A stretch of 63,826 nucleotides of DNA, the filler included, from Reclinomonas americana ATCC 50394 (taxonomy: Eukaryota): the NCBI GenBank assembly GCA_048213135.1. It is 12 parts of 12 records of this genome, joined end to end, with 100 filler letters (N's around TTAATTAATTAA, not from the genome) between each part and the next. Parts side by side here need not be neighbours in the genome. Positions count along the whole stretch, not along the records: positions 33,086 to 42,067 come from AFZH01018170.1; 11 more parts are not named here. One strand, given 5' to 3'. Shown here piece after piece: positions 31,285 through 63,472 of this stretch. The position numbers and the translations under genes were made by a program. Positions within the stretch are counted from its first letter, which is position 1; each line of letters begins with the position of its first letter. Below the pieces are notes generated by a model. It did no database searches, was not told where the DNA came from, and saw only the letters and a list, made by a program, of their open reading frames with translations.

Positions 31285-32773
31285 TCACTCTTCCATCTCC
31301 TCATCTGGTGGTGGCACCGGCGGCTGCGCGACGCGAGTTATATTCCAGCCAGCAAATCAACTCAATCCCTCTTCCTCAATCTCACCAACACGAGTGGAGC
31401 GCCGAGTGACGATGAGAACCAAGGCGTCTGCGGGTATTCGAGTCCGGCTTGGTCCAATTCGCCGAGGAACTCCTGCACCCTGTATATCTTGTCCTCCAGA
31501 AGCTCAAGGTCCTCGTCGGCAGTCGTTTCGCGCTGCCCTTCCAGCTCGTGCAACAGCTCTTGCACCTCTGCTATCTTCTGCTTGTGAAACGCTACCGCAC
31601 GCTGTCGCACAGAGCGATTCACCGTCGTCATGATTGAGTGCAACTCGCCACCCTTCCGCAGTTGCCTCTCCAGCGCCTGCGCGTAGAATGACACTCGCAT
31701 GTATTCTGCGTCGACAGTCAGTGAGTGAATGAGTGAGAGTCTACCACAGTCATGGCCTGCAGGGCTCACGCACCAATCTCGTTGATGTTGCGCGGCGGTG
31801 CGAATGCCGGCTTGCCGTTGGCGGTGGCGTAGCCGATGAGACAGCCGTCGAAGAACTGTGGTGCGATTTGGCTGCTCAGCTGGCCCAGCGAGGAGCCCAT
31901 GCTGCCGGAACGGGGCACGGTTTTGCTGCATGGCGAGTCAGGGCGAGAGAGGAAAAAAAAAGGAGGGGGAGGAGAGGAGCAGACCGTGGTGGGGGCATCC
32001 AGCTGCGGCAGCAGTCGAGGAGTATGATGAGGGAAACGTCGCGCTCGTGAGTTGCATCTTGCAGGTCGCGGACGATGCTGCTGACGCTGACCCAGTGTTG
32101 CTTTTTCTAGAATGGGGAAGAGAGGGGAAGGGTGTGAAAAGAGATGCATGCACGAAGAATCGAGCTCAACAGGAAAGAAAGTGAAAAATGAGAGGAGATG
32201 CCAATCCGGATGTTTGAAGAGGCAAGAATGAAACAAACCGCAGGAATGACAGAAGGACAGGAGGTAAGGAGGTGCTATCGCAGTGAGGAAAAGGCGACAG
32301 GCAAAGGGAAAGAGGAAGTGAAAGTGTGATCGGAAGGAAGGCAGAACAAATCAGCGAGAGCAGAAGGGCGATGGAGTGCACCGACGAGAGGGAGAGAGAG
32401 AGAGGACGAGAGCGATCAGCCCCTTTCCCTCATCTTACCTGCACGTCGGACCAGTTGCCGTTGTGGCCATCACGCGGAATGAGATAGTTCTCGTTCATCA
32501 ACTGCGCGCGTGACAGTCCGAGTGAACCGCCCGCTCCACCGTCGGCGGAGCTCGAGAGGCTCTGACCGTGGCCGACGTAGTAGAAGAGCACGACGTGCTG
32601 GTGATCGGCGGCGGCGGCGGCGGCGGCGGCGGGGTCGCGGAAGGGAAAGGCGTGGTTGATGTGGGGAATGAGCGTGTCGGTCCACCACTCGTCAAAGTCG
32701 CCTTTTGTCTGGAATCTGTCGGTGGCGGGGAGGCACTCCCAGCCCGCGTCGTGGAAGTAGCCTTGAAGGAGCT
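31285..32773 (-). CDS. Caspase-family protease, copy A (first exon lost in gap)
   Basis: ELLQGYFHDAGW...VLFYYVGHG (32773-32439)|KKQHWVSV...IILLDCCRSW|...GCLIGYATANGKP|...SFYAQALERQL...QTPWFSSSLGAPL|PPVPPPDEEMEE*. Confidence 0.87.
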
Positions 32774-32911
32774 CTGTCATGGGGGGAGAGAGGGGGGGGG
32801 GAGGGAGGGGAAGAGAGAGAGATTCAGAGTGTGCATGTGTGTGCTTGTGTGTGTGCGTGTGTTGTGTTGTGTTGTGTTGTGTTGTGTTGTGTTGTGTTGT
32901 GTTGTGTTGTG

Positions 32912-32973
<62 letters not shown>

Positions 32974-33085
32974 AGAGAGAGGAGANNNNNNNNNNNNNNN
33001 NNNNNNNNNNNNNNNNNNNNNNNNNNNNNTTAATTAATTAANNNNNNNNNNNNNNNNNNNNNNNNNNNNNNNNNNNNNNNNNNNN

Positions 33086-33241
<156 letters not shown>

Positions 33242-33334
33242 CTCTGTGTCTGCATGCGCGCGTGTGATCCGTTTTGACAGAAACTCGCTTGCATTTTGAG
33301 TCGCCTCTCACTCTCCTCTCCACCTTTGTCGCAG

Positions 33335-36300
33335 AAAATACAAGCGTGTTGCTCTACTGATCGGGAACAAGTGCGAAGACATTCGTGAGGAAGAAAATCA
33401 CCTGCACTATCAACCTGCGTTTGGTCAGCTGAGGAACCCAGAGCGTGATGTTGGTGTGTGGTGTTAATTCAGCCTGTGCATGTGTGATCATGAGTGCATT
33501 TGTGCAGCTCTCTCTCCTTCTCTCTCTCTCTCTCTCTCTCTCTCTGTCCCCATCTCGCTGTTACACACGATCTCTCAGTCGTTCTCTCCTTCCCCTCCTG
33601 CAGCTGTGTTGCAGCCGGTTCTGGAGGAGTGTGGCTTTCACGTCAGATCATTTGTCGACGTGATGGCTGATGACATGCATACGGTGCTTGACGAATTTGT
33701 GCGGGATGAAGTGAACGCAAAGTGCGAATGCGTGCTGCTGTTCTTCTCTGGCCACGGGTTGGCGATTGATGGAGACCTATTGCTCCTCCCAAGTAACGTC
33801 AATAGAAAGAGTGTCTCCAGATCACGTGTGGTGAGTTCTACCTCTCTTGTGATCTGATAGTTTGGAAGCCGTTTTTCACACGGTGTGCATGTATGTAGCT
33901 GAGCGGTGAGAAATCGCTGAAGCTCGTCGAGTACTGTGTTGATCGACTGTGGCGGAAGTCATCAAGGCGTACGGTAGTGATGTTGTTGATGAATTGCTGC
34001 CGTTCCATCGACAGGTGAAGACAGAGTCATGACGCCGCGCACTTCGGGGCTTGCACTTTCTCATCCGTTACATGCGTGTGCGTTGGTACAGCTCACAGCC
34101 GCGGAATGTCACCCCGATTGACGAATGGACCCTGCCGAAGAATGTATTTGCTGGCTTTGCTTGTTATCACGGCTGGGAAGCTTACGAGGGTGGTGAGTAA
34201 TGTGGGAGAAATGTTTTTGTGCATATTGCGAACGTCCCACTCAATTTCGTCCCTGAATTGCAGACAACGAGTCTCCATATGTCTTGGCACTTGTGCGCGC
34301 CATCACGGAGCATGGGCACCTGCGACTTAGTGCGTGGCACGAGCAAGTGGGGTTCATCTTAGCAGAGGTCCAGGAACGGGGTCAAGTGCAAGAAGCAGTG
34401 CATCGTCATCGACTGATGGAAAAGGCGCTGAATGCATTCCGACTGAGTTTGCATCCAGGTGAGTAGCTCTGCATATCTCGTTTCGTGCATTTACTTGACG
34501 TCGCTCTGTTGTCTGTTCGTGTCTTCTCCACCATGCGTACGTTGGGAACTCTATCGTTTTTCGTAATCCGTGGTCGCGCCCGCGAAGTCTGCAGCTCACT
34601 CATTATTGTCATAGGCATCCTAGAGCATTGTCGCCGGGAGCTCTCCTTCTACCAACACGATGAGAGTGTGCAAAAGGACATGCACATGTATGTGTCACTT
34701 CTGTGCTCACGTGATCATGACGTCTCTGCGCGGGACAAGATGACGGACTTGTTCACGGAGGTGGACGTCTTCCTCTCCGACTCCAACGTCACGCAGCGTG
34801 TGCTGGTGCTCTTTGGCAACAGTGGAGCCGGCAAGACCACCACCATGTCGGTACTGGCCAAGCGAGCATGGCGACATTGGCAGACAAGGGAGAGTAGACG
34901 AGTGCCGGTGCGTGTGCCTCTTGGTGCACTGCGCAATGCCGATGAGCGACTGCTGGAGGAGGCACTCAAGCGATTGTCTCCCGAGAAGATTGATGTGCGA
35001 CGGTTAAAGGATGAGCCACTGCTGTTGTTGCTTGACGGATACGATGAGTTGTATCGTGGCGTGAATCTGTTTGTCAAGAACCAGTTGGATTTGTGTCGCG
35101 ATGTGAAGGTTATTGTCACCTGTCGAGGTGATTACGCACTGACGGCACTGGGTGGTGTGACACAATATCGACGACTGTTTGCACCGGTGGATGCACGAGG
35201 ACAGTTGTGCTTGCAGCAGCTGATGGAGCGACACATTGCGCCGTTCAACAAGGAGCAGATTGAGGAGTACTTCAAGCGTCTAGTGCGAGTTGGTGGTGAC
35301 GATGGTGACGGTGATGTGCGATGGTCGACTGCCGAGGAGTACATTCGTGCGCTGAAGAGTGTACACGGACTGGATGCATTGGTGTCGAATCCATTCCTAT
35401 TGACAGTGGTGGCTCGTGTATTGCCGCAGTTGGTGGCGAGTGGTGTGCAGCGACCGACTCGGTATGATGTGTTTGACCGATTCATTCGGCAGTGGATTGT
35501 GAGGGAGCAGGAGAGACAGACGCGTCTTGGTGCAGAGCGTGTGCCGAGTGAGGAGACTTGTCTGGCATTCTGTGAGGGCCTAGCGCGCCTGATGCATGAG
35601 AGAAATGTGGTGCGTGTGTCTGCGATGGCTGACAGGGAAGAGGATGAGGACTTTGGTGGTGCGCCACTCGCCTTGCGACGCGTGGAAGAGAGAGCGTTTG
35701 ACAAGTTTCTCGGTCACAAGAACCAACATGTACGAGTGTGCTGTCCGATTGTGCGACGGTATGGGACGACGCAGTGGGGATTCGTGCATCTGTCGTTGCT
35801 GGAGCACTGTGTGGCACGGCATGTGTTTGCGTGGGAAACGTGGGATGAAGCGAGGCGATTGACGGTGGAGGAAGTGCAGCAGCATGTGCTTGCAGTGCGA
35901 CTGCTGAACGACGGGCCGTCGTTGATGGAGCAAATGGCCGAGGTAGTGCGACGGTCTCCTCAATTGCAAGCGAGGCTGTGGGAAGTGATTGAGTTGTCAA
36001 GGGAGGTGGATGAGGAGAGAGTGGTGACGGCAGCGGCGAATGCAGCTACAGTGCTGTGTGTGGCACAAGTGTCGTTCAGTGGGCGCGATCTGTCTGGTGT
36101 GCGAGTGAGGGGTGCGGATTTGAGGGATGCGGTGATGCACAGGACGGTGTGGAGGGGAGCGGATTTGCGAGAGGTGAATGTGTGCATGGCGTATGCGAGG
36201 GAGGCGGATTTCAGAGGGGCGGATGTGACGGATGTGAAGTGGCCGAGGAAGCCGATGGTAGGGCACACAGGATCCGTATGGTCCGTCGCCATCACTCCCG

Positions 36301-38186
36301 ATGGACAGCGTGTTGTGAGTGGGGGTGAAGACAAGACTGTGCGGGTGTGGTCGCTGGCAAGTGGCGAGGAGGTGCGACGACTGGAAGGCCACACCGCGCA
36401 GGTGAAGTCTATTGCTGTCACTCCTGACGGTTGTCATGTTGTCAGTGGGGGGGAGGACAACACTGTGCGTATGTGGTCACTGACCAGTGGCAAGGAAACA
36501 CGGCTGTTGGAGGGACATACTGGTGGGGTACTAACTGTTGCTCTCACTCCTGATAGTCGGTACATTGTCAGCGGTAGTTGGGATAAAATGGTGCGTGTTT
36601 GGCCGCTGTCGCATGAAGAAGAAGTCCGTCGATTGGAAGGACACACAGAGTCGGTGATGTCTGTGACTGTCAGTCCCGATAGTCGCCATATTATAAGTGG
36701 AAGTTCTGATGCGACTGTGCGAGTGTGGGTGTTGGCAAGTGGGAAGGAAGAGCGTCGGTTGGAGGGACACGCCTGGGGGGTGCGGTCTGTTGCCATCACT
36801 CCCAATGGACAACACATTGTCAGCGGGAGCGAGGACATGACCGTGCGAGTGTGGTCGGTGGCAAGTGGAAAAGAAGTCCGGCAATTCCAAGGACATGCTG
36901 GTTGGGTGTCGTCTGTTGCCGTCACTTCTGATGGTCAGCACGTTGTGAGCGCCAGTTATGACAGAACTATACGCATCTGGTCACTGGAGAGTGGAGATGA
37001 AGTACGGCGCCTGGAGGGGCACACAAGTTGGGTGTACACTGTTGCTGTCACTTGCGACTGGCAGCACGTGGTGAGTGGAAGTTGGGACAAGACATTGCGC
37101 GTGTGGTCAGTGGCGAGTGACGAAGACGTGCGACGGTTTGTAGGACATAGCGAAAGAGTGCGTTCGCTGGCCACGATAATCGATGCTCAACACATTGTGA
37201 GTGGAAGTCATGACTATAGTATTCGAGAGTGGTCAGCAGTGAGCGGAGAAGAGGTGCGGCGGATGGAGGGACACACTGATTACGTTTTGTCTGTGGCTCT
37301 TTATCTGCCTAGCATGCAGCTTGGTAGCGGTAGTGATGACAAGACAGTGCGGATATGGTCACTGGCAAGTGGCGATGAAGTGCGACGGTTGGAGGGACAC
37401 ACTGGAGGAGTATTGTCCGTCGCCTTCGCTCCCGATGGCCAACATATCGTGAGTGGAAGTTCTGATAAAACTGTGCGTATCTGGTCACTGGCAAGTGGCG
37501 ATGAAGTGCGACGGTTGGAGGGACACACTGGCTACGTCTGTGCTGTTGCAGTCACTCCCGATGGCCAGCATATTGTGAGTGGTAGTGCTGATAAGAATGT
37601 GCGAGTTTGGTCACTGGCGAGTAGAGAGGAAGTGCGACCGTTGGAGGGACACACCGGTGCTGTGCTTTGTATTGCCGTCACTCCCGATAATCAACACGTT
37701 GTGAGTGGCAGTGCTGACATGACAATACGGGTGTGGTCATTGGCGAGTGGGGAGAAAGTGCTTCTAGTGGAGGGACATGTCTGGGATGTACGATCTGTCG
37801 CAATCAGTTGTGATGGTCAGCACATTTTGAGCGGCGGCGGAATGTTTGACAGGACTGTGCGATTGTGGTCACTGGCGACTGGGATTGAACTTGGACAGTT
37901 GCACGGACACACCGACTCCGTGAACTCAGTTGCTTTCGCATTCGACGGTCAGCATGTCGTGAGTGGGAGTGATGACAAGACAGTTCGACTGTGGTCACTA
38001 GCGACTGTTACGGGGATGCGCTGTAACACGGTAGCCGACGCAACCGGTGCATCTCGCACTTACCCCACTGCAACCAAAGATACTGTGCGAGCATCTGACT
38101 TGTCGGCACGGAGGTCGCAGCACGAAAACTTGCTCGAGCGAGTATATGGCTCATTCTTGCCAGATTTCACCGACGCTTTGTATTAG
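33335..38186 (+). CDS. NLR-like STAND protein: caspase (C14) - NACHT - pentapeptide repeats - 14x WD40; 5' exon(s) in gap
   Basis: Exons 33335-33453, 33604-33830, 33899-34014, 34092-34192, 34264-34458 and 34615-38186 splice in frame (all GT-AG). Motifs: KRVALLIGN...LRNPERD, LLFFSGHG, LLMNCCR, Walker A GNSGAGKT, Walker B LLLLDGYDE, VTCR, SNPFLL, pentapeptides GADLRDA/GADLREV/EADFRGAD, 14 GH...W repeats. Confidence 0.9.
36261..38005 (+). repeat. 14 tandem 126-nt WD40-coding repeats with high internal conservation
   Basis: 42-aa units GHxxxVxSVAxTPDGQHxVSGSxDxTVRxWSLASGxEVRRLE. A 50-nt block is identical at 37356-37405 and 37482-37531. Confidence 0.93.
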
Positions 38187-62400: not shown

Positions 62401-62677
62401 GTGAGAGTCAGTGAGAGAGAGAGAGAGAGCGGGAGAGAGAGAGGGAGAGAGACAGCAGTGAGAGAGAAAGAGAGGAGGGCAACAGAGACAGCTGTGAGAG
62501 AGGGGAATGAGACAGAGAGAAGGAGGGAGAAGAGAGGGAGGAGAGAGAGAAGAGAGCGAGGGGGAACAAGACAAGGCNNNNNNNNNNNNNNNNNNNNNNN
62601 NNNNNNNNNNNNNNNNNNNNNTTAATTAATTAANNNNNNNNNNNNNNNNNNNNNNNNNNNNNNNNNNNNNNNNNNNN

Positions 62678-63472
62678 CACCGTGATGCAGTCAACTCTGT
62701 AGTTGTCACTCCTGACGGGCAGTACGTTGTCAGCGGGTGTTTAGACAAGACCGTGCGCGTGTGGTCACTTGCGAGTGGCAAGGAAGTGCGACGGTATAGA
62801 AGGCACACTGACTGGGTAATGTCTGTGGCTGTCACTCCCGATGGCCAGCACGTGGTGAGTGGAAGCTGGGACAAGACAGTGCGAGTGTGGTCACTCGCGA
62901 CTGGAAAACAGGTGCGACGGCTGGAGGGACACACCGGGTTCGTGGAGTCTGTTGCCGTCACTCCCGATGGTCAGCACCTCGTGAGTGGCAGCAGGGACTG
63001 CACAGTGCGGGTATGGTCACTGACGACTGGCGAGGAGGTGCGACGGCTGGAGGGGCACGGCGATATCGTGTTTTCTGTCGTCGTCACTCCCAACAGTCGG
63101 TATGTTATCAGTGGGAGTCGCGACCAGACAGTGGGGGTGTGGTCACTGGAGAGCGGTGAGGAAGTTCGACGACTGAAGGGACACGCTAGAGAGGTCTTGT
63201 GTGTTGCCGTCTCTTCCGATGGGCAACACATCGTCAGTGGCAGTGGGGACAACAAGATCCTCGTGTGGTCCACTCCATGCGGCCTCGCTCAGCTGGAACT
63301 CCTCACAGCGCGCTCGGCGATGCAGGCAGTGCGGGAGATGCAGCAGCGGAAGGAGGAGGAAGAAGAGCCGGACTCTCGGTGCTTGCCAGAGATGGTGCTG
63401 CGCTGCTTCATGGTGGAGGAGGCGGCTGTCGTGGTGCATCGATCTTTCGCTGACACTGAGTTGCATCTGTGA
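62678..63472 (+). CDS. 3' part of a second NLR-type WD40-repeat protein
   Basis: About five 42-aa repeats (VTPDGQHVVSGSWDKTVRVWSLATGKQVRRLEGH) with the same consensus as 36261-38005, followed by an unrelated helical tail; intronless. Confidence 0.8.
   Translation, partial: HRDAVNSVVVTPDGQYVVSGCLDKTVRVWSLASGKEVRRYRRHTDWVMSVAVTPDGQHVVSGSWDKTVRVWSLATGKQVRRLEGHTGFVESVAVTPDGQHLVSGSRDCTVRVWSLTTGEEVRRLEGHGDIVFSVVVTPNSRYVISGSRDQTVGVWSLESGEEVRRLKGHAREVLCVAVSSDGQHIVSGSGDNKILVWSTPCGLAQLELLTARSAMQAVREMQQRKEEEEEPDSRCLPEMVLRCFMVEEAAVVVHRSFADTELHL

Follow-up and report, generated by a model that had tools for sequence, protein, structure and literature searches.

How do receptors of cell death and immunity come by their effector domains? 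This is usually inferred from domain trees alone; at the locus described here, gene structure carries the signal. The locus lies in a stretch of DNA of 63,826 nucleotides (nt), filler included, from Reclinomonas americana ATCC 50394 (assembly GCA_048213135.1), made up of 12 parts of genome records joined end to end and analysed as a whole (hereafter, the window). It contains a predicted single gene, here called NLR, whose product of about 1,445 codons would be an NLR-like STAND protein consisting of a C14 (caspase-type) protease with an intact His/Cys dyad, a NACHT domain, pentapeptide repeats and a 14-blade WD40 array. Beside it lie four tandem genes for putative stand-alone C14 proteases (the free copies FC0 to FC3), on the minus strand between 23.3 and 32.8 kb.

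The question raised by this arrangement is whether the protease and the sensor of the NLR gene share one history. An earlier note on the same DNA had proposed that a resident, intron-rich caspase gene was fused to an incoming, intronless sensor module by lateral transfer or retrocopy. In this study, the gene models were rebuilt, the introns of the NLR protease and of the free copies were compared, the relatives of both parts were searched for, and four other explanations were weighed. On balance, the NLR gene appears to be a mosaic of two pieces with different histories.

Introns common to the NLR protease and the free copies

Six exons on the plus strand, joined at GT..AG sites, give a single open frame for the NLR gene (Table 1). 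This model reproduced exactly the coordinates and the caspase intron phases (1,0,2,1) of the earlier note, with introns in helix 1 (..ERDV/A/VLQ..), 13 codons past the P of LLLLP, 3 codons past CCRS and 13 codons past the G of GFA. The free copies were located by a scan for the CCRS motif, which gave three more CCRS strands on the minus strand, followed by six-frame reading and comparison among paralogues; brute-force enumeration of GT..AG pairs had been too ambiguous, and paralogue comparison was used instead. Their models rest on continuity of the open reading frame (ORF) and on what the copies conserve among themselves; the NLR gene did not serve as a guide. All splice sites, in the NLR gene as in the free copies, are predictions from sequence.

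The independent models bear out the claim that the free copies have the same phases at matching places. Phases 1,0,2,1 are common to NLR, FC1 and FC2, and FC3 shows 0,2,1 for the introns it retains; intron 1 of FC0 is of phase 1 as well, at the codon used by FC1 and FC2. The codon split by intron 1 precedes the terminal aromatic residue of helix 1 by 11 residues and the Asp at the end of strand 2 by 18, equally in NLR, FC1 and FC2. Intron 2 lies 13 codons past the P of the LxP strand in NLR and FC1 and 12 codons past it in FC2 and FC3, with 32 codons (NLR) versus 31 (free copies) from the intron to the first Cys. Intron 3 follows CCRS by 3 codons in NLR versus 6 in the free copies, and intron 4 stands 4 (NLR) versus 5 codons before the next helix and 13 versus 20 codons past the G of G(F/Y)A. 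Measured by these conserved anchors, introns 1 to 4 are offset by 0, 0-1, 3 and 1-7 codons, respectively. Blind MAFFT alignment in three modes left a separation of one column for intron 2, four columns for intron 3 and two columns for intron 4.

The expectation by chance was calculated for four introns placed at random in 254 codons, a match being defined as a position within 4 codons and in the same phase. Three or more matches would arise with a probability of about 2e-4, and all four with about 5e-7 according to the formula (in 500,000 trials, 0 and 1 occurrences under the two phase models). It is concluded that the intron pattern was inherited and did not arise by chance, and that a single intron-bearing gene gave rise to both the free genes and the NLR protease. 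Since the positions and phases of four introns are shared, their common ancestor would already have had those introns.

Membership of the NLR protease in the C14 family is supported by exon 2 alone, which scored 39.9 bits with Pfam Peptidase_C14 (PF00656; cut-off 21.4, E 4.9e-10) and which, over helix 1 up to and including the His strand, aligned to the PDB entries of MALT1 and of an ancestral effector caspase. Peptidase_C14 clusters made up 29 of the 30 Atlas matches of the protease. In the spliced protein, the catalytic residues stand in the expected order, FFSGHG and then LLMNCCRS, and the His strand aligns to that of MALT1. PADLOC and NCBIfam gave nothing further than a weak caspase match (19.7 bits) and pentapeptide matches, a word-index protein search with NLR exon 2 gave no match, and in a tblastn search of the window the NLR protease matched nothing but itself.

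The free copies are mutually 63-69% identical and under purifying selection, with a ratio of nonsynonymous to synonymous substitutions (dN/dS) of 0.23-0.38. They are regarded as real genes because of this ratio, their conserved splice sites and a conserved 12-codon last exon (PPVP..., same TGA), which is found in all three copies that have a 3' end. These three copies also have a fifth intron, of phase 0 and 58-62 nt, with a conserved GTGAG donor after ..APL(V/Y)L. The motifs YY(V/A)GH(G/A) and LLLDCCRS are conserved among the copies. Single free-copy exons did not reach the Pfam C14 threshold (12.4 and 17.4 bits versus 21.4). A word-index protein search with FC1 exon 2 found no match, and a PDB profile search with free-copy exon 2 returned no caspase and two spurious matches only. 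A metagenome locus (L044) picked up with the free-copy profile was rejected, since a high-GC bacterial ORF there matches at DFDEWWSD by chance.

The earlier note was silent on the fifth intron of the free copies and on the missing 5' end of the NLR gene. The first caspase exon of the latter has no in-frame ATG and an in-frame stop upstream. A sole local combination of ATG and GT reaches the acceptor at 33334, giving a protein that starts MRAKYKRVALL.. and a coding sequence of 4,338 nt (1,445 codons); otherwise, the true 5' exon is hidden in the gap at 32986-33085.

The sensor exon and its relatives

The 3,572-nt exon had been described as intronless, and it is indeed an uninterrupted ORF along which homology is continuous: one relative (P0001) covers 98% of its first 540 residues, several NACHT relatives align from query residues 1-14 onwards, and the WD40 units are regularly spaced. 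The NACHT domain scored 32.8 bits with PF05729 (cut-off 26.7, 7.7e-8), and both Walker motifs are present. Of the spacings among the 14 in-register WD40 units, twelve are of 42 amino acids (aa) and one is of 44 aa; the units have 40-74% of residues and 51-79% of bases in common, and Tandem Repeats Finder detects the youngest 3.4 copies. Half of the length of the big exon is explained by in-place duplication of 126-nt WD40 units.

An exhaustive search at E-values up to 0.001 found 1,578 NACHT relatives, all at no more than 36% identity, except for one fragment at 88%. The best relatives of the big exon are 25-36% identical over 400-480 residues and retain the order NACHT-pentapeptide-WD40. The Atlas clusters of the sensor family are mainly bacterial in all ten cases among those listed. 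When one genome per prokaryotic species was scanned, 43 loci came up at 21-32% identity; most belonged to Mycoavidus, an endobacterium of Mortierella, and others to Chlamydiae, Coxiellaceae, Myxococcota and Nitrospirae. The named eukaryotic matches of the sensor module are two Mortierellaceae proteins, and a metagenome scan with the NACHT part found no relative.

The earlier note had named a bacterial fusion of caspase and NACHT as a finding that would speak against it. By phmmer or by a His/Cys motif, no caspase was found in 164 NACHT relatives (the 150 best and 14 earlier matches), nor in 783 ORFs of at least 80 aa from the 43 bacterial loci; fusions of this kind in cyanobacteria are known by description. 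Of the separate trees it had called for, the NACHT tree was run, with 95 rows comprising 61 proteins, 33 bacterial loci and the window; another 93 proteins that matched did not enter it. The smallest well-supported set containing the window NACHT comprises 44 rows and names no donor.

Three side observations concern the sensor family. The 88% fragment is a database protein of 178 residues (P0015) that matches NACHT residues 72-216 and is frame-shifted at both ends relative to the window gene; it represents either a paralogue in decay or a close relative whose assembly is of low quality. Genomes assembled from metagenomes and labelled Mycoavidus cysteinexigens (loci L001-L032) contain many NACHT-pentapeptide genes, with several loci per assembly, and these contigs are of either bacterial or fungal-host origin. 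Lastly, a second WD40 array is present at 62678-63472 on the plus strand, namely, a C-terminal end of five 42-aa units, 53-63% identical to the NLR units, with a different tail and stop. It lacks a NACHT part and an N-terminal domain in the assembly because it begins directly past the gap at 62578-62677, and it is probably a paralogous NLR.

A gene of probably two histories

Besides the intron link of the protease to the free copies, two features of the gene point to a mosaic. Introns are very unevenly distributed, with at least five in the 0.76 kb of the protease part versus none in the 3.57 kb of the sensor part, and the break between the intron-rich and the intron-free part falls exactly where the NACHT-pentapeptide-WD40 homology starts. 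The bacterial type of the sensor family, the lack of a caspase among the relatives and loci searched, and the splitting of the nearby kinesin and phosphofructokinase genes into several ORF pieces count in the same direction. In the proposed course of events, the protease part would derive from the same intron-bearing eukaryotic lineage as the four tandem free C14 genes, and the sensor part from an intronless exon whose family is known elsewhere from bacteria and Mortierellaceae fungi. The sensor would have been joined to the protease gene at an intron on the 3' edge of the protease domain, after which WD40 units of 126 nt each would have been duplicated in place, lengthening the big exon. The source of the sensor may have been lateral transfer, a retrocopy or a resident intronless paralogue.

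Several observations weigh against a mosaic, as do those listed below in favour of its rivals. On the side of the protease, blind MAFFT leaves the pair of first introns 33 columns apart, and introns 3 and 4 are not at identical codons but in loops of different length. Sequence similarity between the NLR protease and the free copies, which the earlier note had correctly described as low, is marginal: BLASTP gives E-values of 0.004-0.053, only around the LLxxCCRS strand, hhalign gives 0.0064, and a forced alignment yields 22-27% identity. Because protein similarity is barely detectable and blind alignment fails there, the homology of intron 1 rests on structural register. The statement that this intron occupies the identical codon thus holds in that register (11/11 and 18/18 residues) and fails in the blind alignment. 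The register is supported by the alignment of NLR exon 2 to MALT1. Fragment folds of low confidence (predicted local distance difference test, pLDDT, 41.7 for the free copy and 43.5) show, in either second exon, an initial helix at residues 2/3-8 and a long helix from residues 21-23, and may lend weak support to it. The fifth intron of the free copies and the junction intron of the NLR gene both lie at the 3' edge of the protease, and their phases differ (0 versus 1), so that the former was possibly reused as the junction.

On the side of the sensor, the NACHT tree puts the window on a long branch (1.54) near the midpoint root, with no close partner. The G+C content at third codon positions (GC3) is nearly the same in the caspase exons and the NACHT part (0.58 versus 0.62), and their relative synonymous codon usage is correlated (r = 0.55). 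No A-rich tract was found in the 330 nt past the stop of the big exon, so the poly(A) mark of a retrocopy is missing; marks of this kind (poly(A), duplications) could be gone, since an old event would have lost them. There is, then, no sign of a recent lateral transfer or retrocopy of the sensor exon in codon usage, poly(A) or the NACHT tree. Given the uniform codon usage, the missing poly(A) and the long branch, any transfer or retroposition would be old, and the present evenness of codon usage along the gene implies that the join itself is likewise old.

The idea of a resident caspase gene joined to an intronless sensor is therefore retained in part. The intron link beyond chance, the uneven intron density and the break at the module edge speak for it; the arrival of the sensor by transfer or retrocopy finds no backing in the uniform codon usage, the lack of poly(A), identities of 36% at most, the one fragment at 88% apart, and the long branch. 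Codon usage of the caspase exons correlates with that of the free copies at r = 0.26-0.40. The whole NLR gene (33330-38186) has a GC3 of 0.52-0.62, below that of the free copies (0.65-0.77) and of housekeeping neighbours (0.74-0.81), which could reflect low expression or a different history.

Alternative explanations

The alternative that survives best, unlikely as it is, divides the locus into two adjacent genes: a fifth stand-alone caspase ending at the TAG of 34462-34464, and a separate NACHT-pentapeptide-WD40 gene starting from an internal ATG. The shared intron pattern would then hold, but there would be no caspase-NLR. The NLR-type architecture in one polypeptide does hinge on the predicted splice 34458/34615 and, like every other splice site, the junction between exon 5 and the big exon is a prediction. 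With the junction intron unspliced, the caspase frame stops two codons on (GGT GAG TAG), and the long ORF of the sensor reaches upstream to 34467, with an in-frame ATG near 34533. Against two genes, the junction donor is the consensus GTGAGT, as in three other introns of the NLR gene, the acceptor TCATAG is of a kind also used by FC2, and splicing preserves the frame exactly. Family homology is lacking in the alternative N-terminus and begins right at the acceptor, and the intergenic spacing would be only about 70-150 nt.

Loss of introns from the 3' part is also improbable as an account of the uneven density. Under this explanation, the fused gene was ancestrally intron-bearing throughout and recombination with a partial cDNA erased its 3' introns, without any incoming module. 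A 5'-biased intron distribution is a known signature of cDNA-mediated intron loss, and codon usage is uniform along the gene; the end of a partial cDNA is arbitrary, however, and would not be expected to coincide with a domain boundary and with the start of NACHT homology, and the relatives of the sensor module are bacterial-type proteins.

It is more doubtful still that a bacterial-type metacaspase-NACHT-pentapeptide-WD40 gene was acquired entire and gained its 5' introns later, the free C14 genes being partial duplicates. An identical architecture exists in cyanobacteria, as far as its description goes (PMC3501461), and the free copies adjoin the NLR gene. Such an origin requires that the protease part gained five or six introns while the far longer sensor part gained none, and the NACHT relatives and bacterial loci searched held no caspase. 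The low identity between the NLR protease and the free copies also speaks against it, and means that any duplication is old.

That the intron match is a coincidence between unrelated C14 genes is scarcely credible: similarity is marginal and introns 3 and 4 lie in loops where the alignment is free, but four phases match in order, two of the positions agree exactly when measured from anchors, the probability is about 2e-4 for three matches and about 5e-7 to 2e-6 for four in the simulation, and the genes are adjacent and have the unusual CCRS motif in common.

The mosaic reading is thus preferred, and the NLR gene is regarded as a eukaryotic, intron-marked version of the C14-NACHT-pentapeptide-WD40 architecture.

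Comparison with known systems

In the Apaf-1 apoptosome with caspase-9 and in inflammasomes, a caspase is switched on through induced proximity by a STAND NTPase whose C-terminal repeats act as the sensor. These systems recruit the protease via CARD or PYD adaptors, whereas the predicted NLR protein would have it in the same polypeptide, and the NTPase in the window is of the NACHT type and is accompanied by pentapeptide repeats.

Metacaspase-NACHT-WD40 proteins are described as widespread in bacteria, with a cyanobacteria-specific variant in which a pentapeptide domain separates NACHT from WD40 (Asplund-Samuelsson et al. 2012, PMC3501461). Going by that description, the variant has a C14 protease, NACHT, pentapeptide repeats and WD40 in the order of the NLR gene. 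The bacterial genes are intronless, whereas the protease part of the NLR gene has eukaryotic introns shared with local free paralogues; moreover, the closest NACHT relatives of the NLR are without a protease. These best relatives of the big exon, i.e., NLR-like proteins of Mortierellaceae, Mycoavidus and other intracellular bacteria, are similar to it in domain order (NACHT-pentapeptide-WD40) and differ at their N-termini, which are ARM-like, OTU, HD-CE or without assignment, and not C14. A possible transfer of NLR domains between Mortierella and Mycoavidus is among the points discussed in PMC9815663.

Fungal NLR-like proteases, either subtilisin-like or caspase-like (CHAT), are reported to control gasdermin-like proteins (Clave et al., bioRxiv 10.1101/2021.06.03.446900; PMC8915998). 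As described there, they resemble the NLR protein in the fusion of a protease effector to an NLR-type sensor, in their case in a cell-death context. They differ from it in that the protease in the window is C14 proper, and a general Pfam scan of 116 long ORFs of the window recognised no gasdermin-like gene. In fungal HNWD/NWD NACHT-WD40 genes, the WD40 repeats are described as 42 aa long and highly similar (Paoletti et al. 2007, PMC1805685). Set against that account, the NLR gene too has a strict 42-aa array with units alike at the DNA level, but its units are only moderately identical (51-79% of nt).

Genomic setting and feature coordinates

The window is eukaryotic DNA of about 55% G+C, with short GT..AG introns and many CT and GT microsatellites. 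Its gaps are found at 11 sites (5167-62677), each consisting of 44 N, TTAATTAATTAA and 44 N. Those near 27.9 kb and 33.0 kb, at 27886-27985 and 32986-33085, which were the ones inspected, sit at microsatellites, and the order of contigs at the inspected gaps seems correct because FC2 runs on across one of them. In the Pfam scan of the long ORFs, further genes were recognised for an EGF/lamin-tail protein, a beta-helix protein, the N-terminus of RPA1 and a fatty-acid desaturase, and nearby for a kinesin motor and a phosphofructokinase (PFK), the last two each broken into several ORF pieces.

Introns 1 and 2 of FC2 exceed 1.1 kb and consist of low-complexity, CT-rich DNA, with a gap inside intron 2, and their counterparts in FC1 measure 370 and 124 nt. 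The introns of FC2 (28000-30500, minus strand) hold a repeated stretch that translates as ...SISVSTCLPSMSSPFSF... several times. FC3 and the NLR gene stand head to head (32773-33335), separated by microsatellites and one gap only; this gap must hide exon 1 of FC3, and perhaps a shared promoter region. The positions of all features are given in Table 1.

Table 1. Predicted parts of the NLR gene and of the free C14 copies in the window (positions count along the whole window)
Feature	Position	Strand	Remarks
Putative NLR first coding exon	33254..33261	+	Candidate only; ATG plus 5 nt, then a 73-nt phase-2 intron (33262-33334)
NLR caspase exon 1	33335 (33330)..33453	+	Strand 1 (KRVALLIGN), long loop, start of helix 1
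NLR intron 1	33454-33603	+	150 nt, phase 1
NLR caspase exon 2	33604..33830	+	Helix 1 to catalytic His (FFSGHG) and LLLLP strand
NLR intron 2	33831-33898	+	68 nt, phase 0
NLR caspase exon 3	33899..34014	+	Helix and strand with catalytic Cys (LLMNCCRS)
NLR intron 3	34015-34091	+	77 nt, phase 2
NLR caspase exon 4	34092..34192	+	Loop and GFA strand
NLR intron 4	34193-34263	+	71 nt, phase 1
NLR caspase exon 5	34264..34458	+	C-terminal helices, end of protease domain
NLR junction intron	34459-34614	+	156 nt, phase 1; donor GTGAGT, acceptor ..GTCATAG
NLR big exon	34615..38186	+	3,572 nt, uninterrupted ORF, stop TAG
Pre-NACHT segment	Start of exon 34615..38186, before ~34797	+	Part of big exon
NACHT	~34797-35279	+	Walker A GNSGAGKTT, Walker B LLLLLDGYDE
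Pentapeptide repeats	~36069-36170	+	Pfam 3.9e-6
14 WD40 units	36255-38024	+	42 aa each; WD40 8e-149; followed by a tail and the stop TAG
FC0, exons 1-2	23298..23734	-	23734-23677, 23611-23298; remainder lost at gap 22895-22994
FC1, complete	24396..26119	-	Exons 26119-26062, 25691-25339, 25214-25093, 25025-24874, 24812-24493, 24434-24396; 347 aa; phases 1,0,2,1,0
FC2, complete	26928..30629	-	Exons 30629-30557, 29194-28866, 27750-27629, 27555-27404, 27344-27025, 26966-26928; 344 aa; phases 1,0,2,1,0
FC3, exons 2-6	31285..32773	-	Exon 1 lost in gap 32986-33085; retained phases 0,2,1, then 0
Last exons of free copies	24396-24434, 26928-26966, 31285-31323	-	FC1, FC2, FC3

Proposed function and implications

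By analogy with apoptosomes, inflammasomes and the bacterial and fungal NLR-proteases, as far as these are described (eLife 2020, PMC7159879; Clave et al.), the WD40 propellers would hold the NLR protein off until a ligand binds. The NACHT domain would then bind nucleotide and oligomerise, and the crowded N-terminal proteases would be activated by induced proximity and would cut substrates involved in death or immunity, among them perhaps the free C14 proteins encoded next door.

In the literature consulted, no eukaryotic C14-NACHT-pentapeptide-WD40 gene and no shared caspase introns were met, which does not show that none exists. New in this analysis are the fifth intron of the free copies, a putative further 5' intron of the NLR gene and the second WD40 paralogue at 62.7 kb.

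If the fusion transcript is real, a caspase-like protease would be wired directly to a NACHT-WD40 sensor in this organism, a design simpler than the adaptor-based apoptosome or inflammasome, the history of its assembly would be datable, and candidate partner proteases would be at hand in the same locus. A more tentative possibility is that a eukaryote rebuilt the cyanobacterial type of protease-NACHT-pentapeptide-WD40 machine by exon joining at an intron, setting a bacterial-derived, intronless sensor on one gene of a resident, intron-rich caspase cluster, with the free paralogues maybe acting downstream in a one-locus cascade. Were this the case, the locus would have preserved a record of the way in which an apoptosome-like device can come together.

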